Positions 13,904-49,407 of a stretch of DNA of 64,000 nucleotides are shown here, piece by piece. Numbering within the stretch: position 1 is the stretch's first letter; each line of letters starts with the position of its first letter. The DNA is taken from positions 6,943-70,942 of the forward strand of contig JASLKH010000035.1 in the NCBI GenBank assembly GCA_030747675.1, given 5' to 3'. Origin of the DNA: Candidatus Thalassarchaeaceae archaeon. Lineage in GTDB: Archaea; Thermoplasmatota; Poseidoniia; Poseidoniales; Thalassarchaeaceae. The position numbers and the translations under genes are program-made. The notes under the pieces were generated by a model. That model did no database searches. It was not told where the DNA came from and saw only the letters and a list, made by a program, of their open reading frames with translations.

Positions 13904-15793
13904 TTACGCACTGTCGTCGTCATCAACAACTTCGAAGTCAGCATCGACGACATCTTCTGCACCATCCATTCCAGTATGATCTCCGCCTTGTTCATCTTCC
14001 ATTGATGCTGCTGCTGCCTCATACAACTTTGCAGAGATACCATGCATGGCTTCTTCCAATTCTTGGACTTTTGTTTGAATTGCCTCTTCATCAAGGTCAT
14101 CATCATCAACAGGGCCTTCATCAGTTCGAATTAAAGCCTCAAGTTCAACCAATTTAGCTTCAATCGGTTCTGTATCTGATTCTTCTAACTTATCTCCGGC
14201 TTCCTTCATCGTTCGGCGTGTTTGATAGACAATGCTGTCAGCAGTATTGCGGAGTTCAACCTTCTTTTGACGAGATTCGTCCTCAGCAGCGAATTCCTCG
14301 GCTTCAGATATTTTTTGCTGGATTTCATCTTCTGATAGGCTAGTGGCACTTTCAATACGAATCGATTGTTCCTTACCCGTGCCCATGTCCTTAGCAGATA
14401 CGCTAACGATGCCATTTGCATCAATGTCAAAGGTCACTTCTATCTTTGGAATTCCACGAGCAGCCGCTGGAATTCCTTCAAGGAAAAATTTTCCAAGCGT
14501 TACATTATCCTTGGCGAACTTTCTTTCGCCCTGAAGGACGTGTACTTCTACAGCTGGTTGATTATCAGCGGCAGTACTGAACACTTCTGAACGACGTGTT
14601 GGGATGGTTGTATTGCGTTCAATCATAGGTGTTGTGACACCACCAAGTGTTTCAATGCCAAGAGAAAGAGGTGTTACATCCAGAAGAAGAACATCTGTGA
14701 CTCCTTCGTCACCAACAATGATGCCGGCTTGTAGAGCTGCACCCATCGCTACCGCCTCATCAGGATTAATTCCCTTGAAGGGGGTCTTTCCTGCTTCTTT
14801 CTCTATTGCTTCTTGAACTGCAGGAATACGAGTACTACCTCCAACCAGGAGGATTTTATCGACATCTCCTGCTTTGATTCCCGAATCCTTCATTGCTCGA
14901 CGAGTCGGGCCCATCGTAGCCTCTACAAGATCTGCTGTGAGGTCATCAAATTGAGCGCGTGATAAATTAAGATCAAGGTGCTCTGGATTACCATCTTTCA
15001 TAGTGATGAAAGGTAAATTAATGTGACTTGTTTGAGTACCCGATAGTTCAATCTTAGCTTTTTCAGCGGCTTCCTTCAATCGGCTCATAGCCTGACCATC
15101 TGTTGATAAATCAATTCCGCTACTTTTCTTAAACTCAGAAACACACCAATGGATTACACGCTCGTCAAAGTCGTCTCCACCAAGTTTGTTATTACCCGCA
15201 GTAGCCTTTACTTCAATTTGTGGTTGACCATCTACCTGATATATTTCAAGGACTGATACATCAAATGTACCTCCTCCAAGGTCGTAAACAAGAATTGTTT
15301 GATCATCATCCTTGTCAACGCCATAGGCCAAGGCTGCAGCTGTTGGTTCGTTGATGATACGTAATACTTCTAGTCCTGCAATACGACCAGCATCTTTTGT
15401 TGCCTTTCGCTGAGCATCTGTGAAATAAGCCGGACAAGTGATGACCGCTTGCTTTACTTCTGCCCCCAAATATGCTTCTGCATCAGCCTTTAGTTTCTGT
15501 AAAATGAATGCGCTTACTTCTTGAGGAGTGTAGTGATTATCGTCTACTTTACCTTTCCAATCTGTACCCATTTCTCTTTTAACAGAGAGGAAAGTACGTT
15601 CCGAATTAGTTACAGCTTGTCGCTTTGCTGTCACTCCAACCAATCGCTCTCCATCTTTAGCAAATGCTACTACGCTTGGAGTGGTCCTAGCACCTTCTGC
15701 ATTAGGGATGACTATTGCTTCGCCCCCCTCAATTGTTGCTACACAACTATTTGTCGTCCCTAAATCAATACCTATTACTGCATTTTTAACCAT
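13904..15793 (-). CDS. dnaK: Molecular chaperone DnaK (Hsp70)
   Basis: The 629-aa ORF shows Hsp70 signatures ([34 protein letters not shown]) and an acidic C-terminal tail. GGGAGGA lies upstream, within the end of the preceding gene. Confidence 0.9.
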
Positions 15794-15794
15794 T

Positions 15795-16427
15795 TTAATT
15801 TCCTCCCTTCGGTGAAACCGATTCCTTCGGTTCTCTCAAAGTGAATGTGATATCAAGTATACCGTTATTAATCTCCCAATTATCTACGCTTTCAGCTGCT
15901 TTGGGTAATTCAAAACGTTGAATTGGATGTAATTGAGTTGCACGCATCAAGTGCAAAGTTGATCCTCCTCCTGTGAGGTTCAATTCAACTTCAGAATCAT
16001 CAATACCATCATGACGAGATACATCAATTGTAATATTCATAGAATCACCGTCAACATAAACATCGGCAATTGGAATTGAATTTACAGAATCATCATCATC
16101 TTCGGATTCCTCCTCAATTTCAATTTCAACGAGTTCCGGTTCGGATTTCTTTCCCATCTTGATATCCACGCCCATCTGGTCAAGAATACTGGATATATCT
16201 GGTGCACCTTTGCCAAGGATTTCTCCAATATCTCCAAAATCAGATTGTAAATTTATTTTTACATCGCCTGAACGAATTTTCTCAGGGTCAATACCAAGGT
16301 TATCAAATTGAGATTGGATTTGGTCCATCATACGCATGAGGTCGTCTTCATCAACATCCATGCCCATCTTGCGAAACATTTCGAGCATCTGCTTCAAAAT
16401 TTGGTCTTCCCATTCATCTTTATCCAT
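15795..16427 (-). CDS. Small heat-shock protein (Hsp20/alpha-crystallin family) with an acidic N-terminal extension
   Basis: The C-terminal region resembles an alpha-crystallin domain ([31 protein letters not shown]). Its stop is 1 nt before the dnaK ATG, so the two are co-transcribed. It does not look like GrpE. Confidence 0.55.
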
Positions 16428-16553
16428 GTCTCACCCTCCACTACTTAACCTCGGGTTGTATAGTGGCAGTGTTTAGACATATATCAATCATTGCCTTGAT
16501 ACAAGCCCGGGACCTTTAGCGGCGGATTCAAGATGGGATGATTATTCGGAACC
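16428..16553. promoter_or_regulatory. Bidirectional heat-shock promoter region (hsp20-dnaK divergent from thermosome)
   Basis: Two TATA-like elements are back to back: minus-strand CTATACA at about 16457-16465 and plus-strand ACATATATCA at 16477-16486. They are quasi-symmetric (TTGTATA ... ATATCAA) and about 20 nt apart. Confidence 0.4.
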
Positions 16554-18140
16554 ATGTCCCCCATGGTACAGAAAGATCAGGATCGTGTCCTTTCAGATAC
16601 CGAACAGGTATCCGGAAAAACGGCATTACGAAATAACGTTGAGGCCGCAGTTGCCCTCTCTGGCGCCGTCAGGAGTACATTGGGGCCCAAGGGTTTGGAC
16701 AAATTACTCATCAGTGCCGAGGGAGATACATTGGTTACAAATGATGGTGTCACTGTTCTAGAAACTGCATTAGTGGAACATCCTACTGCTAAAATGCTGA
16801 TTTCTACTTCGCGTGCACAAGATGATGAGGCAAAAGATGGTACAACTTCAACCGTAATCCTCACTGCTGAACTATTGGTAAATGCTGCTGAACTTGTTGA
16901 ACGTGGTGTTCATCCCGCAATTATTTCTCATGGATTTCGACTTTGTGAGCCGATTATAGATGAGGTCCTTAACGAAATTGCGATTGAAGCCGGTGAAAAT
17001 GAACGCCTTTCTGCTGTTTTGACTGCTTTATCGGGCAAAGGTGATGACGGGTTGAGAGAATGCCTTGCGAACCTTGCTCATGAGGCTGCAATATTGATTG
17101 GCACAGGCGATACTGAGCATTGCAGAATAATCACAGAATGTAGTGGGAATATACGAGATAGTGAATTAATCCAAGGTGTTGTTCTCCAAAAATCAAGTGT
17201 GCATCGAGAAATGCCAAATAGGCATTCAGGTGGTAGTATTCTTGTTCTCGATGGAGGGCTAGAAAGGAGAAAACCAGCAATTGAGGCCACTCTTAACATC
17301 ACAAATTTAGGAGCATTGGATTCATTTAATGAAAGGGAACGTGCAGATTTACAGAAACGTGTTGATTCTCTAAGTAATGCTGGTATCGATTTGTTAATTA
17401 CTCGTGATGGCATTGATGATGGAGCGCATATAATGTTAGCGAACGCTGGAATCATTGCATACCGGCGAGTTGAGAGGCCTGATATTGAGCATGTTTGCCG
17501 TGCTACAGGAGCGCGTCCTGTATATTCATTGGAAGATATTAATGGGGCAGATGTTGGGTCCTTTGATGCGCTACGCGAGGAAAAATGGCAAGGCACGAGT
17601 CATATGATCCTCATGGGGGCAAAAAAGCAAGGTGTTACTGTAGTTTTGCGCGGATCCACAGAAATGCGGTTGGAAGAGGCGCGACGTGCCTTCGATGATG
17701 CACTTGGAGTTGCAAGCCAATTGGTCGAAGAAACTCGCTTACTCCCAGGAGGGGGAGCAACACAAATTGCATTAGCGCGTAGACTTCGTAGATTTGCGGA
17801 AACTATTCCAGGAAGAGAACAAATGGCAATCGAGGCTTTTGCTGCTGCTCTTGAAGTAATTCCAAGAGTATTGGCTTCAAATGCTGGACTTGATCCGATT
17901 GACGAATTGCTACGAGCAACAGCAGCACAATCTGACTCAGGCTCTGCTTGGAAAGGACTTGATGTAAGAACGGGGATGATTGTAGACATGTCAGAAGCAG
18001 CTGTTACTGAACCAATTCGGATTACACGTCACTCTATCGTAGGTGCCACTGATGCTGCTATTTCAGTATTGAGAATTGATGACATTTTATGGGCCAAACA
18101 AGATGCTCAAGAACCTAATTGGAAAACTGAAGATGATTAG
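16554..18140 (+). CDS. ths: Thermosome subunit (group II chaperonin)
   Basis: The 528-aa ORF carries group II chaperonin motifs (TLGPKGLDKLL, VTNDGVTVLE, AKDGTTSTVIL). Confidence 0.85.
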   Translation: MSPMVQKDQDRVLSDTEQVSGKTALRNNVEAAVALSGAVRSTLGPKGLDKLLISAEGDTLVTNDGVTVLETALVEHPTAKMLISTSRAQDDEAKDGTTSTVILTAELLVNAAELVERGVHPAIISHGFRLCEPIIDEVLNEIAIEAGENERLSAVLTALSGKGDDGLRECLANLAHEAAILIGTGDTEHCRIITECSGNIRDSELIQGVVLQKSSVHREMPNRHSGGSILVLDGGLERRKPAIEATLNITNLGALDSFNERERADLQKRVDSLSNAGIDLLITRDGIDDGAHIMLANAGIIAYRRVERPDIEHVCRATGARPVYSLEDINGADVGSFDALREEKWQGTSHMILMGAKKQGVTVVLRGSTEMRLEEARRAFDDALGVASQLVEETRLLPGGGATQIALARRLRRFAETIPGREQMAIEAFAAALEVIPRVLASNAGLDPIDELLRATAAQSDSGSAWKGLDVRTGMIVDMSEAAVTEPIRITRHSIVGATDAAISVLRIDDILWAKQDAQEPNWKTEDD

Positions 18141-36685: not shown

Positions 36686-38314
36686 TCAGGCTAACGTGGT
36701 ATAATCTACTTCAGCCTCTTCGATTTCAATTTCATCTACATCCATTTGAGCTAATTGTAATTTACCAGATAATTCATCATTAACTGCATGCCAATACGAA
36801 TATGCTTCAATCACCCAAATTCCTGATTCTCGGGTGCCATTTCCTGAGCCTTTAACTCCTCCAAAGGGTAGATGTGCTTCTGCACCAGTAGTTGAGTTGT
36901 TTATTCCAGTCATTCCAGCCTTAATGCCACTCTTGAATTGGTATGCTTCTAATCGATCATTTGTATAACAAGCACTTGAGAGACCGTAGGGGCTAGCATT
37001 TGCTAAATGTAGCCCATGTTCAAATGATTCAGTACGCACAATTGTCACCACTGGACCAAAGATTTCCTCGTGGAAGCATTCCATGTCTTCAGTGACATCA
37101 ACATATACATGAGGCCACATGTAAACTCCTTCAGATGCATCTCCCAAGAATCCCGACGGTTTGTTTTCATTGGTGATTCTACCATTTCCGAATATTTTAC
37201 GGGCACCGCTTGATTCACACATTTCTAAACCATTCAAGAAATCGGACGCATATTTCTCCGATAACATTGGTCCGTAAAGAACGTCGTCATTACGCATAGA
37301 ATCACCAATTGAGGTGGATTCTACCTTAGCCATGAACTTCGTCATAAATTCATCATAAACATCATTGTGAATAATCAAATTTCCTAAACTAGTACAACGT
37401 TGACCTGCTGTTCCAAATGCAGCCCAATATGCACCTTCAACTGCATTCTCAATATTTGCGGAAGGCATGACTACAAGTGGGTTTTTACCTCCAAGTTCAA
37501 GAGAACATGAAACCAAGTTTCTGCCACATGTTTCACCAATCATTTTGCCCACAGCAGTTGATCCTGTGAATGAAATTTTGTTTACCATCCCCTTGTCTAC
37601 TGCATTCACCAAGTGTTGTCCAGCCCCACTTCCTTTACCATGGATTAAGTTGACTACTCCATCTGGTAAACCAGATTCATGCATAATTCGAGCTAAAATA
37701 AATGATAACAGAGGTGCATCTTGTGGTGATTTCCAAACACACGTGTTTCCACACATAATTGCTGGAATCATTTTCCAAAAAGGTACTGCTGCTGGGAAAT
37801 TGCATGCATTAATAATGCCACAAACACCCAGTGGTCTTCGATAAGTGAATAATTCTTTATTTGGTAATTCAGAATTGACAGTTTGCCCATAAAGACGACG
37901 GCCTTCCGACTGGAAAAACAAACATGTGTCAATCGCTTCTTGAACTGAACCTGCGCTTTCTTTCAGAGTTTTACCAATTTCACGAGTTTCGATTGCAACA
38001 ATAGCATCTTTGTGCTCCATTAGTAGCCGCCCCATATTTCCAATAATCTGACCTCGAGTTGGAGCTGGGGTATTCGACCAATTGCTGAATGCATCACGTG
38101 CGGCCCTAAGTGCATCGTGTACGTCATCCTCAGTAGAAAGAGGGAATTCGCCAACACAGTCTTGTAACCAAGCAGGATTAATTGATTTGAAGGTTGAACC
38201 ATCACTGGCTTGCTTCAATTGTCCATTAATGATATTCCATCCCCGAACGGACGGACTACCATTCGGATTTACGATGTTGAGATGCTCAATGCCTGCTTCA
38301 AGGACGTGTGTCAT
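36686..38314 (-). CDS. NAD(P)-dependent aldehyde dehydrogenase
   Basis: An ALDH Glu active-site region (LELGGKNPLVV) and a Cys region (FGTAGQRCTS) are present. I trimmed the track's GTG start (38329) to the ATG at 38314. Confidence 0.8.
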   Translation of the reverse strand: MTHVLEAGIEHLNIVNPNGSPSVRGWNIINGQLKQASDGSTFKSINPAWLQDCVGEFPLSTEDDVHDALRAARDAFSNWSNTPAPTRGQIIGNMGRLLMEHKDAIVAIETREIGKTLKESAGSVQEAIDTCLFFQSEGRRLYGQTVNSELPNKELFTYRRPLGVCGIINACNFPAAVPFWKMIPAIMCGNTCVWKSPQDAPLLSFILARIMHESGLPDGVVNLIHGKGSGAGQHLVNAVDKGMVNKISFTGSTAVGKMIGETCGRNLVSCSLELGGKNPLVVMPSANIENAVEGAYWAAFGTAGQRCTSLGNLIIHNDVYDEFMTKFMAKVESTSIGDSMRNDDVLYGPMLSEKYASDFLNGLEMCESSGARKIFGNGRITNENKPSGFLGDASEGVYMWPHVYVDVTEDMECFHEEIFGPVVTIVRTESFEHGLHLANASPYGLSSACYTNDRLEAYQFKSGIKAGMTGINNSTTGAEAHLPFGGVKGSGNGTRESGIWVIEAYSYWHAVNDELSGKLQLAQMDVDEIEIEEAEVDYTTLA

Positions 38315-38457
38315 GGTACTTCGACTCACTTCCCCACCATCAAACCTCGCTTTTCGGCGCCAGAAAAGTACCTCTGGGATTGGACTCCAACAGAGAATTC
38401 CAACTGGTGGGGTTTTAGATGGTCAAGTGAATCGGCGTTTTGTCTGGAGACTTGAAT

Positions 38458-40683
38458 ATGGCAGATGATGACGACAAAACACTTCCACTAAGAGTGGCAA
38501 AAGCAATACCAAGCGATGTGGGTCATGGGCGTGCACGTGTGCCTTTTGACAACGATTTAAACCTGAAACCTGGAGATGTTATCGAAATTAATGGTGAACA
38601 AAGTACTGCGGCAATTGTCTGGAGGTGTCGGCCGGAAGATGCGAATTTAGGTGTAATAAGAATTGATGGCATTATTAGAAAGAATGCTGGGGTTAGTTTA
38701 GGGGACAAAGTTACTGTTAGAAAAGTCGAAACAAAACCTTGTACTAGATTAATCCTATCTCCTGTAATGGCAAAGAAGCAGACCGTTCGTTTTGGGCCTG
38801 GAATTGAAGGATTTGCTCGCAGAGGCCTCAACAAAAGACCTGTGGTTGCTGGTGATCGAATCTTTATCCCTGGTATGACTCTCTTTGCTGAGGCATTGCC
38901 ATTTGCCATTGTTTCTACGGTGCCTAAGGGCATTGTGCAAGTATTACCTGATACTGAAATAGTCATCAAAGAGGAAGTTTTTGATGAAGAAGATGGAGGG
39001 GATGTTTCTTCGATAATGTACGAAGATATAGGTGGCCTAGGTAATCAATTACAGAAAGTACGAGAAATGATAGAATTACCACTAAAGCACCCAATTCTGT
39101 TCCGCCGGTTAGGAATAGACCCTCCAAAGGGAGTCTTACTCCACGGCCCCCCTGGGACTGGAAAAACAATGATTGCAAAAGCGGTCGCAAATGAAACGAA
39201 TGCCCATTTCACAAGTATTAATGGGCCCGAAATTATATCCAAATATTATGGTGAATCAGAGAAACAATTACGTGAAATTTTTGATAATGCTTCCAACAAT
39301 GCACCTGCAGTTATTTTCATTGATGAGCTTGATAGTATCGCACCAAAACGAGAAGATGTTTCAGGGGAAGTTGAACGACGTGTTGTCGCTCAATTACTCA
39401 CTCTAATGGATGGAATGCAAGGTCGAGATAATGTCGTTGTTATTGGAGCAACAAATCGACCTGATGCTATCGACCAAGCTCTACGTAGACCTGGTCGATT
39501 TGATCGCGAACTGGAAATTGGAGTTCCCGATAAAAATGGACGCAGAGAAATTGTCAACATTCACACTAGAGGTATGCCTATTGCTGATGATTTTGATATG
39601 GAATGGATTCTAGAAAACTCATATGGTTTTGTTGGTGCTGATGTTTCTGCACTTACTAGAGAAGCTGCAATGAAAGCATTGCGACGATATTTACCTGATA
39701 TAGACTTAGATCAAGATGAAATTCCTCCTGAAGTTCTTGAGAAAATGGAAGTTCAAATGGATGATTTCAAACTTGCAATACGCGAAATTGAACCAAGCGC
39801 ATTGCGTGAAATTTATGTTGAAGTTCCGGAAGTTTCTTGGGCAGATGTTGGTGGCTTAGAAGAAGTTAAAGAACGCTTGAAGGAGTCTGTTGAATGGCCA
39901 CTCACAATGCCAGATAGATTCGAACATTTCGGAATAAAACCACCCCGTGGAATTGTTCTATTCGGTGCACCTGGTACTGGAAAAACGTTGATTGCGAAAG
40001 CAATTGCAAATGAAGCAAAAGCCAATTTCATTACCATAAAAGGGCCTGAATTAATTTCCAAATGGGTTGGTGAGTCCGAACGAGCCGTTCGAGAAGTCTT
40101 CAAGAAAGCGAAGCAAGCAAGTCCCTCTATCATATTCCTAGACGAATTTGAATCAATAGCAGGAGTTAGGTCACAAAGCAGTGGAGAAGGGTCTGATGTT
40201 TCAAATCGTGTTGTAAATCAAATGCTATCCAGTATGGATGGTGTCGAATCAATGGAAGGAGTGATTGTTATTGCTGCTACTAACCGTCCTGAAATGATTG
40301 ACCCCGCGCTGCTCCGAAGTGGCCGCTTTGAACGAGTATTGCACATTCCACCCCCTGACCACTCCAGTTTGAAAGAAATTCTAAAAATACATTCAAAGGA
40401 CATGCCACTCGGGAAATTTGAACTCGATAATTTGACTGATAAAATGACTAATTTCACAGGCGCCGATGTTGAAGCTGTTTGCAGGGAAGCCGCTTTAATT
40501 GCAATGCGGGCAGAAAGAAAGACTGTTTCAAAGAAACATTTCGAAGAAGCAATTGGACGTGTACGTCCAACTATAACCCCTGAAATGCTCGAGTATTATG
40601 GCAAATTAGAATCTAGACTTACAAGTGGACTAGATAGTATTCGTAGAAAAACAGATACTCTAGCCGGAATAGAAAGTGTGTGA
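38458..40683 (+). CDS. cdc48: Cdc48/VCP-like AAA+ ATPase (two AAA domains)
   Basis: Two Walker A motifs (GPPGTGKT) are present, in D1 and D2, plus second-region-of-homology Arg fingers and a Cdc48 N-domain. I trimmed the start to the ATG at 38458 (GGAGA 8 nt upstream); the track start is a TTG at 38440. Confidence 0.9.
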
Positions 40684-40693
40684 GGTGAACAAG

Positions 40694-40936
40694 ATGCCTG
40701 CGGCTTTTAGTACTGAATTATCTGGCCGTAGAGTACTAGATCGACGTGGTGATTTGATTGGAAAAATCGTCGATTTAGTTGTTGACGAAGCAACTGGGAA
40801 TATATTGGGAATGCTGTTAAATCTTGATACTGGTTTGGATTCAAACCTGTTGCCATGGCCTAAACATGGAGACTATCTTCTCATTCCGACAGAAGAAATT
40901 GAGAGTGTAGATGAAGATATTCATATCGCTCGTTAA
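40694..40936 (+). CDS. PRC-barrel domain protein
   Basis: The 80-aa ORF is PRC-barrel-like (LSGRRVLDRRGDLIGKIVDLVVDEATGNILGMLL...LLIPTEEIESV). GAGGTGA lies 5 nt upstream of its ATG, which is 10 nt after the cdc48 stop. Confidence 0.6.
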   Translation: MPAAFSTELSGRRVLDRRGDLIGKIVDLVVDEATGNILGMLLNLDTGLDSNLLPWPKHGDYLLIPTEEIESVDEDIHIAR

Positions 40937-41047
40937 CCCGCCCGTAGGGCGGGATGCAATAGCCACCCATCACCACGCAACGGTCTTAAGGCTCGGTTCG
41001 GCGTCTTCCCCGTGCACATCGGACTCGATGTGGAGAGGTATCTGTAA
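40937..41047 (+). other. GC-rich structured intergenic element with two perfect 7-bp hairpins
   Basis: The first hairpin is CCCGCCC-GTA-GGGCGGG (40937-40953), immediately after the PRC stop. The second is CACATCG-GACT-CGATGTG (41015-41032), immediately before GGAGAGG and the next ATG. The spacer is GC-rich, unlike the other intergenic regions. Confidence 0.3.
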
Positions 41048-42715
41048 ATGAATCTCCCTAATATCGACCTCAAAACCGTATTGCGGTCAAAGAAAGTGAG
41101 GCGCAGTGGCCTGACTTTGGCATTTTACTTAGTTCTGGCTTTGCTCTTGTATAGTATTGTCAGTTCGTACCTAGTCGATGGTGAACCACACCTTTCCGCA
41201 TACGATGATGACTGGGACGACTTGTCCACTTTCAGAAATGATTTGATAGATATGGGAGTTGAAACTGGAAGTCTTGTTTCTTCTGCTGTTTTACTTGAAG
41301 AAATTGATAATCCGGAGGATACTGTATTTGTCATAACCGGAGTTGAACAGGATACAATTTCACTTCCGAGGTTTACAGGAGATACTGATGTGGTTCAATG
41401 GCAAGAATCTGAAGGATATACAACAACTGAAATTGAATCTATCTTTTCCTTTGTAGCAAAAGGTGGAACAATTATTGTCATGGATGATTTTGGTTGGTCT
41501 GGTGCACTTGCCGAAGCCTTTGGTCTACAATACAGTGGACACAGATTGTACGATGCTGAATCTTGGGCACGAGAACTGGATCACAATTATATTTGGATGA
41601 ATGTGACTGACCCTTACACATACACAACAATGGATATGTCGTCACAACACCCTTGTTTCTCAGACTCCGATGGTGATGGAATTATAGATAGATTAGATAA
41701 TCTCCCCAATAATCCCACAAACCCACAACAAATCACAGAAAGTGATGCCGGACTATGTGCACACCATTTAGAACAAAATGGAGATTGGAATTTTTCAACA
41801 AATTATAATGTTCTTCTCAACAGTCCATCTGCATTTGACAAGGATGCTGCAGAATTACAAACACAACGTCGATATGCAATAGGAACTTCTAGTCAAGATT
41901 CCTATCTTGATTCAAATAATGACGGTAACCTAACTGTAGGATTTGAAGGCGGTGGAGTGGAGAGTGATGAACAAGGACCTTTCACAATGGCTGTCAAAGT
42001 TTGTCAAAATGTGGATTGTGAGGAAAATGGGGGCATGCCAATGGGTCGAGCAATTTTCGTCACAGATGGTTCCGCTCTAATCAATGTCATTTATGATCAC
42101 GATGATGCAAATGAGGGCGACTATGGCAGTCTTGATGGAAAAGAAATTCCACTGAATGACAACCGGAAATGGATGCTAGACATGATTGCTGAATCGTTGT
42201 TATCACATGACAATTCGACTGATTCTAATGGAGAGCCCACTGGAGCTTCTGGCTCAGGAAAACAAGTTATTTTTGATGAAAGTCGTCATCAACAACCCAG
42301 TGCTATGGGAGATACATACAATCTAATTTACTACATATTGGTATACTTCACAAATGATTGGATGGCAATGCTATTCCTCTTTCTGGCTTTATTCATTACA
42401 TTTGAAGCAATTATCATTAAGAAAATTGACCCTGAACCATGGCGACATGTATTCAGTATTATTTACTATGGATTTGGAGACGCTAGGCGCTATGGCTATT
42501 ATGGGCGTGCAAACAAAGTAAAGCAAGTTTTACTTTCCAGAGTAAGGAATCTAAATTCTCTTACGAGAGATGAATTTGATGCTCTTCCCGCCAGAGAATT
42601 ACAAAGAATGATTGGTGATCCTGTACTAGTTAAATTCGTATTTGAGGATAGGAACTACAGTCTAGAACAATTAGTTGCAGTCGTAAAACGAGTCAAAATG
42701 TGGGGCCGAAAGTAA
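41048..42715 (+). CDS. Membrane protein with N- and C-terminal TM helices flanking a large acidic extracytoplasmic domain (DUF4350-like topology)
   Basis: The 555-aa ORF has an N-terminal TM (LTLAFYLVLALLLYSIVSSYL) and a C-terminal TM (WMAMLFLFLALFITFEAIII). The segments GGTIIVMDDFGWSG and KQVIFDESRH resemble DUF4350-family features. Its position upstream of DUF58 supports the call. Confidence 0.4.
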   Translation: MNLPNIDLKTVLRSKKVRRSGLTLAFYLVLALLLYSIVSSYLVDGEPHLSAYDDDWDDLSTFRNDLIDMGVETGSLVSSAVLLEEIDNPEDTVFVITGVEQDTISLPRFTGDTDVVQWQESEGYTTTEIESIFSFVAKGGTIIVMDDFGWSGALAEAFGLQYSGHRLYDAESWARELDHNYIWMNVTDPYTYTTMDMSSQHPCFSDSDGDGIIDRLDNLPNNPTNPQQITESDAGLCAHHLEQNGDWNFSTNYNVLLNSPSAFDKDAAELQTQRRYAIGTSSQDSYLDSNNDGNLTVGFEGGGVESDEQGPFTMAVKVCQNVDCEENGGMPMGRAIFVTDGSALINVIYDHDDANEGDYGSLDGKEIPLNDNRKWMLDMIAESLLSHDNSTDSNGEPTGASGSGKQVIFDESRHQQPSAMGDTYNLIYYILVYFTNDWMAMLFLFLALFITFEAIIIKKIDPEPWRHVFSIIYYGFGDARRYGYYGRANKVKQVLLSRVRNLNSLTRDEFDALPARELQRMIGDPVLVKFVFEDRNYSLEQLVAVVKRVKMWGRK

Positions 42716-42729
42716 CGAGGTGAGCAAAG

Positions 42730-43980
42730 ATGTGGACACGGAAAGCAGCGTTGATGCTAGCATCAGGTATTTCTCTTGTTCTAATTGGAATGATGATTGC
42801 AAACTTCGCATTAATGATTCTAGGGCTGATGTTTTGCTCATTCCTTGCTATCAATGGATGGGTCTCAGGACATGGGGATTTAGAAATCGTGCGTACTCTC
42901 TCTGCGGATAACCTCTACAAAGGAGACGATTTGTATGTTGAACTTGCAATCACCAATAACTCATTTCGAAGGACTCAACAAATTGAAGTCTTTGACAACG
43001 TCCCTCATGAAATGAAATTGCGTAGTGGATTAAATTACATGCGTGTTAATCTCGGACCTAACGAAACCACACGTATTCGTTATGTCCTACGGTGTCCTTT
43101 ACGAGGACACTATTCATTTGGCCCTGTATCCATCAGATATCGAAATACATTCAATTTGTTTAGCCAGGAGATGTATGTCGACCATCGCTCTGGGCTAATC
43201 GTCTTCCCTCAAGTTCGAGAAATTGAAGAAGCAATGATTCGTTCTCGTACCCCAAAAATGTACACTGGTGCAGCCACACTACGGACCCCTGGCCCTGGTA
43301 CCGAATTTTATTCATTGAGAGAATATGTACCTGGTGATCCATTCAAGATCATCAATTGGAAAGCATTTGCAAGAACTGGTGTAATGATGGTCAATGAAAA
43401 ATGTCGAGATGCTGTAACAGATGTTTTCATATTGCTAGATTCACGTGATGTTTCAAGAATCGGAACTGTTCTAAAAAACCCATTAGAAATGGGAACTATT
43501 GCTGCAGCCAGTTTGGCATCATATTTCATCAAAAGGCGTGATTCAATTGCACTGGCTGTATTTGATGATAAGCTATCTTACCTTCCTGCCGATGGAGGAG
43601 ATAAACAATATTTCAAAATTCTAAGTAGCCTGGCAGGTGTTGCTCCTCGTGGCAATATGCCTTTACAGGCAGTTACCAATGCATTAGCACCAAGGTTCAG
43701 TCGTGGAAGCCCTGTTTTCATTATCAGTAGTTTAGAGGGCGATGGAACGGTACCTCATGCAATCCGGGATCTTGCTGGAAGAGGGCATGAAGTAGTCATA
43801 TTATCGCCAAGTAGTATTGACTACGAGAGGTTAGTTAGTCGGATACCCCGGATGTCATATGAAGTCATGAAACTTGAGCGCCAGAATCGTCTTTCTGCTG
43901 TTGCAGGTTATGGAGCACGTGTAATTGATTGGATGCCTGATGTAGAACTATCTCAGGCACTCCTTCAGGTGAAAATGTGA
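42730..43980 (+). CDS. DUF58-family protein (MoxR/VWA-system associated)
   Basis: The diagnostic DUF58 motif REYVPGDPFKIINWKAFARTG is present, followed by a VWA-like region (VFILLDSRD). Two TM helices are N-terminal. GAGGTGA lies before the ATG. Confidence 0.7.
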   Translation: MWTRKAALMLASGISLVLIGMMIANFALMILGLMFCSFLAINGWVSGHGDLEIVRTLSADNLYKGDDLYVELAITNNSFRRTQQIEVFDNVPHEMKLRSGLNYMRVNLGPNETTRIRYVLRCPLRGHYSFGPVSIRYRNTFNLFSQEMYVDHRSGLIVFPQVREIEEAMIRSRTPKMYTGAATLRTPGPGTEFYSLREYVPGDPFKIINWKAFARTGVMMVNEKCRDAVTDVFILLDSRDVSRIGTVLKNPLEMGTIAAASLASYFIKRRDSIALAVFDDKLSYLPADGGDKQYFKILSSLAGVAPRGNMPLQAVTNALAPRFSRGSPVFIISSLEGDGTVPHAIRDLAGRGHEVVILSPSSIDYERLVSRIPRMSYEVMKLERQNRLSAVAGYGARVIDWMPDVELSQALLQVKM

Positions 43981-43993
43981 GAGGTGAAACTAT

Positions 43994-45245
43994 GGCAGAT
44001 GATGTTCAACCTCAAGCAGAAGGGATGACTACACTACATCTTCGTGCTTTACGTAAAGATTGGCGCGTCGTTGGTTTGCAAATGGTCGCAAGTCTTGCTT
44101 TAATTTGGCTATTCCTTACGATGACTCAAGTTTTTGGAAGTTGTCATCCTTCTTATGAAGACCAAGGAGCATGGTGTCCAGCACTAGATCATACTCTCAC
44201 TCTGGATACGATGGATGAATATCTTGAAGACGCTGGTGGTGATTTCTCTGAATTACCAATACCTGACTGGATGACTGGACAAGGCAACGATGGTGATGGC
44301 CGTTACCTTATGCCAATTTTCATCATGCTAACTATCGCAGCAGGATGGGTTTTACTAAATTTTCAAGCTCCAAAATTACGTCGTAAAATTACCTTAGGTG
44401 TACTTGGGGGTTTAATTTTCTTCTTAGCGGGAATGTTTCTATTAACTTGGACATTTGGAATGTTAACTAGTTTTGATCTCTATTTACCATTTGGCCATAG
44501 CGATGAATCGATGAATCACGCCAATAGATTAGTGTGGCCGTTAGCAGTGTATATTGAATCACTTATTGTGGTTCTAATATTATCACCTGTCCTCTTTGGA
44601 TTGATGGGGATTTGGGGTTTATCAAAACGAATGATAAATTGGTCTGTCGCTGTGATGCTAATTTATCTCGCTCTATACGCTCTTCTCTCTTATGAAGGAG
44701 TAGTCAATCAATTGGCAGATAGTTCAGACCCGTACAAACCGGGGCTAAATCCCTTACCAACTCAAATTGGAGAAGCAGATACCCTTGGAGGCTTAATCTC
44801 CGGAGAAATTTGGAGTCTTCTTCTCATCGCAATTCTATTGATGGTTTATTCAGAGACTGCACATGCAATAATTCGATTCTTGGAGTATGCATTCCGTCTA
44901 CCTGAATCGTGCAAAAAAGACCCAGAATACGTAGGGCAATTCAAAAATTTGTTAAACAGTCACATGCAACACACTGTGGTGATTATGTTTGCGATGGCTT
45001 TTGTCACAATGCTTGCACTAAAATTTGATGATTTAATAATTGAAGTTGTCTCTTGGGTGGGTTCAGGTCAGTGGAGTGGGCAAGTAAAAGATTCGCTTGA
45101 ACTCAGATTGGTATATGGGAAAGTAATCTCAGCAATGCTTTTCCTGACTTTCGTTGCAGGTATGCGCTATGTGGTTCCATGGCAACGTGTTGCTGGAATG
45201 GTTGAAGCGGCTATTCGTAAAACTAAAGGTAATTCCAATCCCTAA
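43994..45245 (+). CDS. Polytopic integral membrane protein (about 8 TM), third gene of the DUF58 cluster
   Basis: The 417-aa ORF has many hydrophobic helices. I trimmed the start from 43977 to the ATG at 43994 (GAGGTGA 5 nt upstream). Confidence 0.45.
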
Positions 45246-45529
45246 TTGCGCCTAATATGAATTGCATTGATTAGGCGCCCAAACGCTTCAGAAATAATCA
45301 GTATCGCAATTGGTAAGCCACAAATTGTGGTTGTCCAAATCAGGTAGTTAGCCCAATTACTATCATTCCATAACCAAATTCCTGCATAAACAGCAGAACA
45401 GAAAGTGAGGACAAAGGCTAATTTTTCCACTACATGTGGGTAGGCGCGACCACGGTATTCAGTTCGACCAATTAAAGTCCCTGCTCCTTGAGCCGCGTCC
45501 ATTGGAGACTGAGGCGTCTCATCCATCAT
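45242..45529 (-). CDS. Small membrane protein (2 TM)
   Basis: The ORF is 95 aa after trimming the start to the ATG at 45529. It lies 8 nt downstream of the giant coiled-coil gene on the same strand. Confidence 0.35.
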   Translation of the reverse strand: MMDETPQSPMDAAQGAGTLIGRTEYRGRAYPHVVEKLAFVLTFCSAVYAGIWLWNDSNWANYLIWTTTICGLPIAILIISEAFGRLINAIHIRRN

Positions 45530-45536
45530 TTTCACC

Positions 45537-48500
45537 TCAGAAATCAAGATCCGAAAGTTCTCTTTCCAAGTCATCAAGCGCATCTCTATGTTCAGGATTT
45601 GCTGGAGGTGGTACACCATTTTCTGTTGATTCTCTTAAATCAGCAGAGGCATCGACTTTAGATAACTCAACATCAATTTGTGCCATTAATTCAACTTCTG
45701 AAGGAATTCCAGGGGCATCTACAGGTACAAGGCCTGCAGAAATCCGAGTTGAGATATCAATGCCATCGTTTTCAGCAGCTTCCTCAATTGGTTCCCACGT
45801 TGAATTTGATGCAGGTGCTTGCTTAACATCTGAATTAGGAACTGCCGTAGAGGCACTTGAGGTGACCATATCTGGAACAATTACTACAGGTGTATCTTTC
45901 TCAATTGGATTCATTTGAATCACAGCATCATTGTTAATCTCTGGTGTTTCATGACGGGCCAAACCATCCGCCTCAAACGGAAGGCTTCCCGTACGTTGGA
46001 ACGACCAAATTGCCCCCACTGGTTCATCACCAGATAGTCCTGCAACATCCAGCCTTCGTAGTAACTGTTCCAACACCTCAACAGTTTCTGCTAAACCAAC
46101 AGCATCTCCTGCATTCCTGCGATCAGCATCAAGATATATTTCATCTAATGAACGTTGAATCATTCTGCGTACTTCAACTGAAAGGTGAGGTAATGCTTCA
46201 GGCATATGACTAAATCGTTCCAATGGCTTAATCTCCTCTGCTGGTAAACCAAGATCAACTAGGCCTCGAAGTACCTCTTCTAATTGGGTTAACATTGTTA
46301 CTGAAGTCTCATATTCATCAAGGAGACCTTCAAGATCAATAACAACATGCTGCACAGTTTCTGCCAATTGATGCTCGAGTCGAGATTGCACACTCCACCG
46401 TGTCAACCCACGCACCGTATTTGCTGTTTCGGGGGCCTGACGTTCAAGTAAATCCATGACCTCAGTTGAAAGAAGATAACGCGGTGTTCTTGCTACTTCG
46501 TCGACACTGTGTTGAATTATGCTAAGTGCGCGCTCAACTGCTCTGTCCAATAATACAATGCTGTATCCTCGACTCCTTGCATTTGCCATACGATTCAATA
46601 CTGGTTCAAGACCTGAAAGGCCACGGTCATCACCAAGTAATGCTTGAGCGAGGGGTTCTTCCGAGAGGCGAGCTCGAATTTTATCTGCTTCCTGTAAATC
46701 AACTAAGGCCAATTCATGCGCTTCTTCCAAATCTTCAGCTTGTTCTAACAACATTCTTAATTCAGTTTCAGATTGAGCTTTACGTGCATCTAAATCCCCT
46801 AATTCACGTAATAGTAAGCGTCTTTCTTCCATCATTTCTCGCAATTCTGATTGCATTATCGTTGATTTTCTCTCTGAATCAGATAAGCGCCCTCTTTCCT
46901 CTTCCATTAATCGACGATGAGCATGAGATTCAGCCTCCAAATCTCCAAGTTCGGCTCGTTGTGATTCTATGCGACGTTCAGTTTCATCCAATTCTGCTTG
47001 TCCTAAACGATGCCTATCTCTTTGGGCACCGACCTGTTCTGTGAGAACTCTTTGCAAGCGTTCATCATGATCTAATGATTTTCGCACCTCGTCCAAACGT
47101 GTATCTGCAGCAGAAAGTTCCGATTTCACGCGTGCTTCTTCTTCGGATAACTCTCGTAAATCTTGAAGCAAGGATTCTCGTGAATCAAATTCACCGAGGG
47201 CACTGGCTAACTCTTCAGCCCTTTTTCCAACCATATGCTCTAATTCAGCAACTCGTTTCGATAGCCTATCGGATAATGATGTCGCTTCATCTGATGAACC
47301 CTCAGCTGAGCGAATTCTTGCAGTCAAATCATCAATATCTCTATGCAAAGAACTTCGCTCGTCTCTTGATTCTGATAAAGAATTCTCCAAGTCATGCATC
47401 GTTTCTCTAGCATCATCTCTAGACGAGCGTGCATCTGATAATTCCCTTTCCAAACGTGCCTTCTCACGCTCTAAGGATATTCTCGAATGCTCAAGTTGTT
47501 CTAACCGCTGCTTGAATTCACCAGATGCTGGAGTCAATACTTTCCCTTTTGGACCTGGCATTAATTTGGCAGTTCCTGAACCAGCTTCAATCATTTTCCA
47601 GGACGTACGGCCTACTTCCATCGCTTCAACTCCGAGTGCAAAGCCAAAGAGTGCATCTAGACGATTTGAAAGTAATTTCTTACGATCTTCAGATCGAGTA
47701 CGTGAGTTTGTAATTGCATCAACAAGGTGGGCTAAAGACCAGTCCTCAACAGTGGATCCAGCTAGTCCGAGACGTGAGCCTCTATCTAATCGATGAAGTC
47801 GTAACCTTCGAGTAGATGCAGTCATGGAATGTACTGAGTCTGACAATGTCGCCCCTAATGATTCACGTATTCCTGATGGGACTCCATCAATCAAAACTAT
47901 TGATATTGAATCATCTGAATCACTCATTGATTCTAAATGCCCAGTGATTTTGTCTTCATCAGAAATTCGAAGCATGGATATTAATTGATCAATTCCACTT
48001 TTACTTTCCTTTACAATGAAACCTTCGGAAAGTTCACCACCTTCTGTAATTACGTCATCTGGTTCACCAACGACTAAACTAGCAGCATTGGACAATACTG
48101 CATATCCATCCGCTGAATGGCGACACCATAGACCTACGATTGCTTGACCTGTCTCAGAAAAAATTAGTTGCCCTTTATCTAGGCGTATGCTTGCAGATAA
48201 TGGATCTGATTGTCCGAACTCTGAAGCCATACTGCGAAGTGCATTCATTCTCTCTTGACCTGTTTCAGCTAATCCCTGTGGGGTGCTAGGCAAATTGCCT
48301 GAATTATGAATCAAAACACCGTCTTCAAATGCAAGTGCACCCATGATTTCATCTGATTCTGTCAGTTTATCGACGAGTAAAGCAATGTCCTTTGTATCTA
48401 CAGGTAAGGCCGCTGCCCCTTGAGCAAGTAAAGAGGCCACATCTGTTGGATCAGGGAATGCCTCAGGGATTCTCTGAGCCACTTCAGTAAATTGCATTAT

Positions 48501-48773
48501 CGACCAAATGGCTCCCCGTGCACGTAAATCATGACCGTCTGATATTTCCAACAACCTCGCTTTAGCAGCCATCCCAGCAACAAAAGTTTGCTTTGCTTCT
48601 GCTTCCGCTAACCACCCTACAACTCGTCCACCGTGAACTAGGCAATGGGCTGATGCTGTTTTTGCTCTGGATTTATAGTGTGAGACGACGCCTGTTTCAA
48701 ATGGCATTTGTGTCTGAATAACACTCAAATCAGCTTCTGGATCGACTGGGTCACCTGGTGGTAAATTAAACAT
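45537..48773 (-). CDS. Giant protein (1078 aa): N-terminal Roadblock/LC7-like repeats, a long central coiled coil and an acidic low-complexity C-terminus
   Basis: Three or four repeats in the N-terminal ~400 aa match the Roadblock pattern (hydrophobic-G-x-hydrophobic ... DG, LGxG...L.V; for example MGALAFEDGVLIHNSG...LSASIRLDKGQLIFSETGQAIVGLWCR). Residues ~420-700 are heptad-like and E/R/L/D/S-rich (LERELSDARSSRDDARETMHDLENSL...). No Walker A or GTPase G1 motif was found. Confidence 0.5.
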   Translation of the reverse strand: MFNLPPGDPVDPEADLSVIQTQMPFETGVVSHYKSRAKTASAHCLVHGGRVVGWLAEAEAKQTFVAGMAAKARLLEISDGHDLRARGAIWSIMQFTEVAQRIPEAFPDPTDVASLLAQGAAALPVDTKDIALLVDKLTESDEIMGALAFEDGVLIHNSGNLPSTPQGLAETGQERMNALRSMASEFGQSDPLSASIRLDKGQLIFSETGQAIVGLWCRHSADGYAVLSNAASLVVGEPDDVITEGGELSEGFIVKESKSGIDQLISMLRISDEDKITGHLESMSDSDDSISIVLIDGVPSGIRESLGATLSDSVHSMTASTRRLRLHRLDRGSRLGLAGSTVEDWSLAHLVDAITNSRTRSEDRKKLLSNRLDALFGFALGVEAMEVGRTSWKMIEAGSGTAKLMPGPKGKVLTPASGEFKQRLEQLEHSRISLEREKARLERELSDARSSRDDARETMHDLENSLSESRDERSSLHRDIDDLTARIRSAEGSSDEATSLSDRLSKRVAELEHMVGKRAEELASALGEFDSRESLLQDLRELSEEEARVKSELSAADTRLDEVRKSLDHDERLQRVLTEQVGAQRDRHRLGQAELDETERRIESQRAELGDLEAESHAHRRLMEEERGRLSDSERKSTIMQSELREMMEERRLLLRELGDLDARKAQSETELRMLLEQAEDLEEAHELALVDLQEADKIRARLSEEPLAQALLGDDRGLSGLEPVLNRMANARSRGYSIVLLDRAVERALSIIQHSVDEVARTPRYLLSTEVMDLLERQAPETANTVRGLTRWSVQSRLEHQLAETVQHVVIDLEGLLDEYETSVTMLTQLEEVLRGLVDLGLPAEEIKPLERFSHMPEALPHLSVEVRRMIQRSLDEIYLDADRRNAGDAVGLAETVEVLEQLLRRLDVAGLSGDEPVGAIWSFQRTGSLPFEADGLARHETPEINNDAVIQMNPIEKDTPVVIVPDMVTSSASTAVPNSDVKQAPASNSTWEPIEEAAENDGIDISTRISAGLVPVDAPGIPSEVELMAQIDVELSKVDASADLRESTENGVPPPANPEHRDALDDLERELSDLDF

Positions 48774-48775
48774 GT

Positions 48776-49117
48776 TTATGCCTCGATTAAATCTTCAATT
48801 ATGGGGTTCAGTGCTTGTGCTTCATGGCGAAGTCTGCCGATGGGAGTAGTTACTGAAGATGCAATCCATATACTGCCACCTCCACGTAGTGTACTTACAA
48901 CTCGTCGTTTGTTTTCAGATTCAAGCCAAAGTTGATCAATTACTCCTAAATTCAGAACTGATGCCATGCGTGCTGCATCGTGCAATAATTCAGCGTATAG
49001 CGCACCAACTGGTGGCTTTTCTCCTGTCGTAACTACTGGTGTGCCATCTGCATTCAAAATAGAAGCACCATTCACACCCTCGATTTCATCAAGAGTTGAT
49101 AACAATCTATTGAGCAT
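48776..49117 (-). CDS. Roadblock/LC7 (MglB-like) domain protein
   Basis: The 113-aa ORF fits the Roadblock pattern (LLSTLDEIEGVNGASILNADGTPVVTTGE...GVIDQLWLESENKRRVVSTLRGGGSIWIAS). I trimmed the start to the ATG at 49117 (GAGGGG 4 nt upstream). It is 3 nt upstream of the giant coiled-coil gene. Confidence 0.6.
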   Translation of the reverse strand: MLNRLLSTLDEIEGVNGASILNADGTPVVTTGEKPPVGALYAELLHDAARMASVLNLGVIDQLWLESENKRRVVSTLRGGGSIWIASSVTTPIGRLRHEAQALNPIIEDLIEA

Positions 49118-49407
49118 TGGACCCCTCAAAATCATTTGAGGATGAAATTGAGTTCAAGAACTTGTCCCAATTCGGCCCCTAAGGGGGCCGTTTCTAGAGG
49201 GGTTTCAAATCGCCAACTGAAATGCGGGTTTTTTCGAATTAAAGTCGTTTATTGATCCTTCAATATTAGGCTATCGAAGTTTTTAGACTGGCTCATATCG
49301 AGATTTTCGACTTTGATAAATTTCTAATTGTAAATTTAAAAAGTCAATTGGTAAATTATTCTCAAAACCATAGTTGATTTGAAGAATAGAACCACTTCGC
49401 AGGATTT

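Follow-up and report, generated by a model that had tools for sequence, protein, structure and literature searches.

The window analysed here, 64,000 nucleotides (nt) of contig JASLKH010000035.1 from a Candidatus Thalassarchaeaceae archaeon, contains a DUF58 gene that lies between two membrane-protein genes, behind cdc48 and a PRC-barrel gene. DUF58 belongs to a DUF4129/DUF4350/MoxR/DUF58 module that is widespread in bacteria and archaea, and we know of no organism in which a function has been established for it. An earlier note on this DNA had drawn attention to the missing MoxR ATPase and had suggested either that Cdc48 functionally replaces it or that the cluster is a stripped-down variant. 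The best-supported interpretation is that the three genes, referred to here as the triad (DUF4350-like gene, DUF58 gene and eight-transmembrane gene, 41048-45245), are an ancient, divergent, MoxR-less paralogue of this module that is fixed throughout the Poseidoniales.

All five genes are on the plus strand, and the extents described in the earlier note were confirmed by open reading frames (ORFs), Pfam and hydropathy. The first encodes a 741-aa Cdc48/VAT-type double-ring AAA+ ATPase (38458..40683; Pfam CDC48_N at 1.4e-25, CDC48_2, two AAA domains and AAA_lid_3) and is followed after 10 nt by the gene for an 80-aa standalone PRC-barrel protein (40694..40936; PF05239, 1.6e-9). A spacer of 111 nt, the distance already given in the note, separates the PRC gene from the triad on the same strand. 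It opens, directly 3' of the PRC stop codon, with a GC-rich hairpin recognised by eye (CCCGCCC-GTA-GGGCGGG, 40937..40953) and continues with a promoter-like, BRE/TATA-like element that is conserved order-wide (AACGGTCTTAAGG, 40979..40991) and with a predicted stem-loop of the 5' untranslated region (5'-UTR; CACATCG-GACT-CGATGTG, 41015..41032), which abuts a Shine-Dalgarno sequence (GAGAGGT, 41033-41039). The triad itself encodes a 555-aa bitopic membrane protein of the DUF4350 family (41048..42715), a 416-aa DUF58 protein (42730..43980) and a 417-aa membrane protein with eight transmembrane (TM) segments by hydropathy and without a Pfam family (43992..45245; alternative GTG start at 43977). 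The recurring GAGGTGA Shine-Dalgarno sites were also found as described, upstream of the PRC, DUF58 and membrane-protein genes, where the measured intergenic gaps are 10, 14 and 11 nt, respectively. An Rfam scan of 38000-45600 gave no credible match.

The DUF58 protein matches PF01882 with 71.3 bits against a cutoff of 23.4 (E 8.4e-20), and the family motif that the note reported at 42730..43980 is present as LREYVPGDPFKIINWKAFAR. Within the signature R-x-Y-xxGD-xxxx-I-NWK, residues R197, Y199, G202, D203, N209, W210 and K211 are invariant or nearly so. The nearest homologues, at 83-96% identity, are named Marine Group II, Poseidoniales or Thalassarchaeaceae, and in an exhaustive search every named member of the subfamily belonged to the Thermoplasmatota. 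A profile search with a 47-sequence alignment returned matches dominated by Poseidoniales and also recovered P0122, and a PDB sequence search with the DUF58 profile gave no match. In the AlphaFold2 model built from the 47 sequences (pLDDT 89.8, pTM 0.80), residues 4-45 form a TM hairpin, which hydropathy indicates as well. Next comes a beta-sandwich (51-159), joined by a disordered linker to an alpha/beta VWA domain (193-412). The Foldseek matches of the sandwich were TRAP-beta and complement MG domains; those of the second domain were the VWA domains of Rpn10, CMG2, CLCA1 and Ku80. Judged from its residues, this VWA domain is without a canonical metal-ion-dependent adhesion site (MIDAS), the corresponding position reading LDSRDVS. 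Since R239 is invariant throughout the 47-sequence family alignment, the metal site is degenerate in the MoxR-linked relatives also.

Homology to known cluster components was established for both flanking proteins. The DUF4350-like protein scores below the gathering cutoff of PF14258 (25.5 bits against 30.4; E 1.8e-5), although the DUF4350 relationship proposed in the earlier note for 41048..42715 was confirmed through its relatives: it aligns over its full length with the DUF4350 protein of locus L087 (blastp E 4e-31), which is itself PF14258-positive, and the L098 orthologue reaches 44.8 bits. Its layout consists of an N-terminal TM segment (20-38), a large acidic extracytoplasmic domain with insertions, a second TM segment (430-448; both by hydropathy) and a cytoplasmic tail of about 100 aa. 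By the positive-inside rule, the large DUF4350 domain would be extracellular and the DUF58 body cytoplasmic. The same note had proposed a search for DUF4129 or transglutaminase signatures in the protein ending at 45245. No such signature was found in this protein, which is homologous to the polytopic protein encoded 3' of canonical DUF58 genes: HHalign against the canonical-cluster proteins gave a probability of 95.1% (E 3e-8, 177 columns), and the match to L087-type proteins alone was weak (E 0.012). Residues G203, G206 and W208 (GxxGxW), E288, S368, E370, L371, Y375 and G376 are invariant across cluster types, and the 8-TM protein is probably orthologous to the polytopic protein encoded after DUF58 in clusters with MoxR. 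A single-sequence structural model of the protein reached a pLDDT of 47.6, too low for a fold search.

Because all three triad proteins have counterparts in canonical clusters, the triad corresponds to the membrane core of a five-gene module. In the Thermoplasmatota, the order of this module is a giant DUF4129/transglutaminase surface protein, DUF4350, MoxR, DUF58 and a polytopic membrane protein. We compared 27 canonical loci, representing contexts outside the cdc48-linked type (Thermoplasmata MAGs, that is, metagenome-assembled genomes, marine contigs and Thalassarchaeaceae). MoxR (AAA_3) lies directly 5' of DUF58 in 27 of 27, and wherever the flanks are present, the large surface protein and DUF4350 precede MoxR and the polytopic membrane protein is encoded after DUF58. 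The giant protein further upstream carries Ig-like, CarboxypepD_reg and macroglobulin-like repeats and ends in a C-terminal TM helix and DUF4129; in the marine low-GC loci (L174-L177) it has an additional Transglut_core domain. The triad DUF58 protein is 36-42% identical to the DUF58 proteins of these clusters. The stripped-down variant proposed in the earlier note is therefore supported, as the Thermoplasmatota relatives have MoxR between DUF4350 and DUF58 and the giant upstream, and the Poseidoniales copy is without both.

The absence of the ATPase from the locus was established by several searches. Pfam on all ORFs of at least 150 aa identified no MoxR in the window, and tblastn with a real MoxR probe gave no match there. 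A MoxR hidden Markov model (HMM) found nothing at E <= 10, either in the window or across 149 Poseidoniales loci (with the window, 2.29 Mb), and an HMM of the DUF4129 tail likewise gave no match across this material; both passed their positive controls. The statement that there is no MoxR thus holds for the locus. It probably does not extend to the genome, as related Poseidoniales genomes encode MoxR elsewhere.

Loci in other Thermoplasmatota (L093, L181 and L182) encode DUF4350::DUF58 fusion proteins of about 750 aa, which match PF14258 at 36-48 bits and provide independent evidence that DUF4350 and DUF58 work together. Where the upstream flank is complete (L093, L182), the fusion gene is preceded by a DUF4129 giant of 2100-2200 aa; on the 3' side of all three lie a protein of about 200 aa and then large Ig-like surface proteins. 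No moxR occurs within 10 kb upstream in L093. We considered this lineage as a second moxR-less one, a view overturned by L182, in which a divergent moxR stands about 8 kb upstream at the edge of the locus. L182 shows that moxR can sit in a transcription unit apart from its partners and still persist in the system.

Canonical clusters are also present in an abundant marine low-GC lineage (L094-L105 and L174-L177; GC content 36-37% where measured, contigs as long as 1.37 Mb), whose full cluster starts with a protein of about 3000 aa that bears a transglutaminase core and TSP3 repeats. A search with the MoxR protein of L098 returned marine sequences only, at 86-93% identity. This lineage could be a sister group such as Marine Group III, or its cluster could be a third paralogue.

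The distribution of the triad was surveyed in 149 Poseidoniales loci from both families, 142 of them with unique DUF58 DNA, and adjacency was counted only where the flank suffices. One genome-contig scan yielded Poseidoniales loci alone, none below 78% identity, and is silent on deep synteny. The MoxR-less form was found in 149 of 149, with DUF58 aligning over its full length in all and 64-96% identical across the order. DUF4350 is directly 5' of DUF58 in all 117 loci that could be scored, the membrane protein directly 3' in all 124, and cdc48 upstream on the same strand in all 91; TtuA follows downstream in 73 of 75. PRC was detected by tblastn in 110 of 114 loci; of the four loci missed, at least two (L004, L005) do have a PRC gene by Pfam. 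An aldehyde dehydrogenase that is unrelated and divergent from cdc48 retains its place in 77 of 77 loci, so the 91/91 adjacency of cdc48 carries no functional weight. In the synteny check suggested in the earlier note, cdc48, PRC and the triad are consistently linked, and moxR lies elsewhere in related genomes; the linkage is no tighter than background synteny. The arrangement that the note had set against its own Cdc48 proposal, with MoxR adjacent to the triad in close relatives and the cdc48 linkage lost, was not encountered. One contig labelled 'Phycisphaerae bacterium isolate MED703' (L078, NZFX01000057.1) has a Poseidoniales cdc48-PRC-DUF4350-DUF58 locus with a 79% identical DUF58 and is probably mis-binned in a public MAG.

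Compared with close relatives, the nonsynonymous divergence (dN) of DUF58 is 0.04-0.09, the same as that of Cdc48; DUF4350 stands at 0.11-0.22, the membrane protein at 0.15-0.25 and PRC at 0.16-0.36. Synonymous divergence (dS) is saturated even against the closest relatives and a dN/dS value was obtained for only three of 35 pairs, so dN alone was used. Low dN with saturated dS marks the triad as clearly functional rather than a remnant, and by this measure it is under strong purifying selection.

Downstream of the triad, a convergent block on the minus strand (45242-49135) encodes, besides a 1078-aa soluble coiled-coil protein, a 125-aa 2-TM ORF and a 119-aa ORF whose Roadblock/LC7 match is weak and below cutoff (E 0.0015). 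Of 93 Poseidoniales loci, 79 have the block; in one sublineage without it, TtuA stands directly after the triad. The 1078-aa ORF (45537-48773, minus strand) was considered as the missing DUF4129 partner and rejected: it shows no DUF4129 or transglutaminase signature, is soluble, coiled-coil and unrelated to the giants, and is absent in 14 of 93 loci. The convergent block is unrelated to the DUF58 module.

Genome annotations of related organisms revealed where MoxR is encoded. Damashek et al. 2021 (PMC9723583, supplementary file 4) annotated the MAG SIMO Bin 19-2 (GenBank VMDE00000000), of Marine Group IIb (MGIIb) genus O1, with MoxR and COG1721 in two rows each and Cdc48 in one. Its contig 4 carries, in order, Cdc48, a small ORF, a 547-aa ORF, a COG1721/arCOG02742 gene, a 403-aa ORF and TtuA, which is the cdc48-triad locus with the orthologue of the window's DUF58 gene. 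Contig 40 of the same MAG (PMC9723583) carries xdhC, cutS/L/M, a 313-aa ORF and a 534-aa ABC_transp_aux-like ORF, then MoxR (gene 975; K03924, AAA_3, MG2_0574) and a COG1721 gene of 439 aa, which a second 313-aa ORF and aro genes follow. It thereby holds a complete MoxR-bearing paralogous cluster with a DUF4350-like gene. An orphan moxR (contig 58, gene 1168; K03924, best hit MG2_1709) is flanked by infB/ndk and a YitT-like membrane gene and has neither a DUF58 nor a VWA gene next to it. One reference record, of an uncultured Poseidoniales archaeon (taxid 274854), supplies the best hits MG2_1601/1604, MG2_0574/0575 and MG2_1709. The complete cluster was also recovered by sequence. Proteins of the P0123 cluster, 430-438 aa long, 43% identical to the DUF58 protein of the window and named Thalassarchaeaceae or Poseidoniales, are encoded in loci (L178-L180) with the order XdhC, CutSLM, a protein of about 310 aa, DUF4350-like, MoxR, DUF58, a protein of about 315 aa and aro genes, which confirms a canonical MoxR-bearing cluster in the Thalassarchaeaceae. 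A second MAG contains both DUF58 paralogues, CMB13_03270 of the triad type and CMB13_04690 of the canonical type. The supplements of Rinke et al. 2019 contained no MoxR or DUF58 terms.

The spacer between the PRC gene and the triad has features of a boundary between transcription units. The PRC-DUF4350 gap is always at least 51 nt, with a median of 89 (n=119 loci), compared with medians of 10 and 9 nt within the triad; the cdc48-PRC gap is bimodal order-wide, at 3-13 nt or about 40-110 nt. Among 101 unique spacers, the promoter-like element occurs in lineage-specific variants (AACCGTCTTAAGG, AACCTTCTAAACC and AAGCGTATTAAGG), and the eight spacers missed by the regular expression carry one-base variants. 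It lies at a roughly fixed distance, typically about 50-70 nt 5' of the DUF4350 start codon, and resembles the TCTAAA/TTTAGA boxes of other divergent promoters in the window. The stem at 41015..41032 differs by lineage with its pairing kept (CACATCC/GGATGTG, GAACC/GGTTC, TAGACC/GGTCTA, CTCCA/TGGAG and AGCGC/GCGCT), and the mean folding energy of the stem-loop is -8.05 kcal/mol against -5.94 for shuffles, although it is weak or absent in several groups of Marine Group IIa. This stem-loop may stabilise the 5' end or control translation. The GC hairpin at 40937..40953 is possibly a terminator or a 3'-end stabiliser; similar hairpins, or in many cases oligo-T runs, stand at the post-PRC position in relatives. 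In two informative field metatranscriptomes, both at very low coverage, cdc48 reached 0.22 and 0.41 counts per million (CPM) and the triad genes 0-0.11, with 1.69 and 3.03 for the canonical MoxR and 0.19 and 0.18 for the orphan MoxR. These levels speak, if weakly, against one cdc48-to-triad transcript at a single level.

The C-terminus of the Cdc48 protein (40663-40683) reads ...AGIESV, with G(I/M)E(S/T)(V/M) conserved across the Poseidoniales, and is devoid of the HbYX motif for docking to the 20S proteasome, though this is apparently the sole Cdc48 of the genome. The single Cdc48 row in SIMO Bin 19-2 implies a general-purpose role. The nearest solved relatives of the PRC protein are the standalone PRC-barrel proteins 8qzo and 8onw. 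The adjacency of archaeal PRC-barrel genes to Cdc48 is listed by Zhao et al. (bioRxiv 10.1101/2023.03.28.534520) as a recurrent neighbourhood, with many such genes. Cdc48 is probably only a neighbour of the DUF58 system, not a part of it.

Taken as a whole, we consider it probable, although by no means secure, that the triad is a separate three-gene MoxR-less paralogue operon with its own promoter, a MoxR acting in trans and an inherited position next to cdc48. In detail, the genes at 41048-45245 would form a transcription unit apart from cdc48-PRC, starting at a promoter in the spacer after the PRC gene. The VWA protein would be serviced by a MoxR AAA+ ring encoded elsewhere, for which the orphan moxR is the obvious candidate, and the place behind cdc48-PRC would reflect conserved gene order. 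A trans-acting MoxR appears the most likely option because related genomes encode MoxR elsewhere, both in a complete paralogous cluster and as an orphan gene. The system may use ATP to assemble or remodel a complex of the cell envelope. This role is suggested by the architecture of the whole module, which combines a DUF4350 domain outside the cytoplasm with giant surface partners and with a cytoplasmic VWA protein and its MoxR.

Several points weigh against this interpretation. The orphan moxR, an entry of an annotation table, is a candidate partner only, and the presence of moxR in the genome of the window itself is extrapolated from one MGIIb MAG, the MG2_ identifiers and a MAG with an 83%-identical DUF58. 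The putative promoter is called from conservation and resemblance; we rejected the motif as a general promoter string, as other gene starts in the window do not repeat its exact pattern. The candidate terminator of the PRC gene is here a hairpin only, so that read-through from cdc48-PRC into the triad is possible, and differences between transcript levels at such low coverage are weak evidence. Furthermore, the contrast between the invariant cdc48-PRC-triad order (91/91) and the variable downstream block (79/93) is compatible with selection for linkage.

This last contrast also speaks for the view that Cdc48, possibly with the PRC protein as an adaptor, took over the role of MoxR, so that cdc48, PRC and the triad are one functional unit. 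Strand and order are the same in all 91 loci of both families while the block 3' of the triad has been gained, lost or inverted; moxR is missing from exactly the triad copy; the predicted cytoplasmic DUF58 body would be within reach of Cdc48; and among the best fold matches of the VWA domain is Rpn10, which partners proteasomal AAA+ machinery, a point that is suggestive at most. None of this amounts to positive support, and we know of no precedent for Cdc48 using a DUF58 or VWA partner. Five results count against the replacement suggested in the earlier note and weaken it. The aldehyde dehydrogenase is linked equally well (77/77), and a conserved promoter-like element and a gap of at least 51 nt stand between PRC and the triad. 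SIMO Bin 19-2 has two moxR genes alongside its cdc48-triad locus, the second MAG contains both DUF58 paralogues, and the MoxR-bearing cluster is confirmed by sequence in the Thalassarchaeaceae. No Cdc48 or PRC was found near the 27 canonical and three fusion loci, L093 with its moxR-free upstream 10 kb included. Finally, Cdc48-PRC pairs are widespread without DUF58 (bioRxiv 10.1101/2023.03.28.534520), and SIMO Bin 19-2 has a single Cdc48, implying a general role. We therefore regard a takeover by Cdc48 as improbable, and the broader claim that Cdc48, perhaps through a PRC adaptor, was recruited in the Poseidoniales to drive a DUF58/DUF4350 complex that uses MoxR everywhere else as a shade more improbable still. 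If true, such a recruitment would be a swap between two unrelated AAA+ clades on a VWA-type partner.

The main alternative to a MoxR acting in trans is that the triad needs no ATPase and, after the loss of moxR and the giant, persists as a passive membrane scaffold, receptor or channel-like complex. Two of five ancestral components are gone, transcript levels are far below those of the MoxR-bearing paralogue, and a long stem branch to the Poseidoniales triad DUF58 in a neighbour-joining tree, followed by strong conservation, fits a functional shift. The degenerate MIDAS site could be read in the same way; however, its R239 is common to the MoxR-linked relatives in the alignment and hence no peculiarity of the triad. 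Every residue that is invariant across the family is kept, in DUF58 as in the membrane protein, and SIMO Bin 19-2 has in the same genome an orphan moxR without a partner of its own nearby. An ATPase-independent triad is thus a serious possibility, which we nevertheless hold to be rather unlikely. Loss of moxR and of the giant partner, together with very low transcript coverage, could also be taken as signs of a decaying, functionless remnant of a MoxR operon, but this idea is effectively refuted by conservation: DUF58 aligns over its full length in every locus, with the identities and the Cdc48-like dN given above and dS saturated, and conservation extends to the operon spacing, the Shine-Dalgarno sites and the upstream element.

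A single annotated MAG that combines a complete module, an ATPase-less module and an orphan moxR offers a natural test of whether MoxR serves VWA partners in trans. The triad is also a test case for what the minimal membrane core does. Furthermore, our results carry a caution of method: where gene order is near-perfectly conserved, 100% adjacency has no functional weight. Elsewhere in the window (13904-18140), the genes for DnaK, a GrpE-like ORF and a thermosome subunit are grouped, with a common divergent promoter region containing palindromic GTCTAAAC/GTTTAGAC boxes.

Among known systems, the closest to the 80-aa PRC protein are the CdpB-type PRC-barrel division proteins and the Cdc48-PRC pair. 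The window shares with the pair of Zhao et al. a standalone PRC-barrel gene directly 3' of cdc48, and the passages of that preprint consulted here mention no DUF58 link (bioRxiv 10.1101/2023.03.28.534520). Like the triad, the fusion clusters have no moxR at the DUF4350/DUF58 junction, evidence that the ATPase gene can be lost from this position; they differ in that their two proteins are fused, the DUF4129 giant is kept, moxR is kept in L182 and no cdc48 is nearby. The canonical MoxR/DUF58 operons resemble the triad in a DUF58 protein that passes PF01882, homologous DUF4350 and polytopic partners, gene order and tight coupling, whereas all 149 Poseidoniales loci lack moxR at the DUF4350/DUF58 junction and the DUF4129/transglutaminase giant. 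The canonical cluster of the Poseidoniales themselves (MG2_0574/0575-like; L178-L180; SIMO Bin 19-2 genes 973-977) keeps MoxR, adjoins cutSLM/xdhC and aro genes, and is transcribed at severalfold higher levels. It has in common with the triad a COG1721/arCOG02742 DUF58 protein and the order of DUF4350-like, DUF58 and membrane protein, and the two occur in the same genomes.

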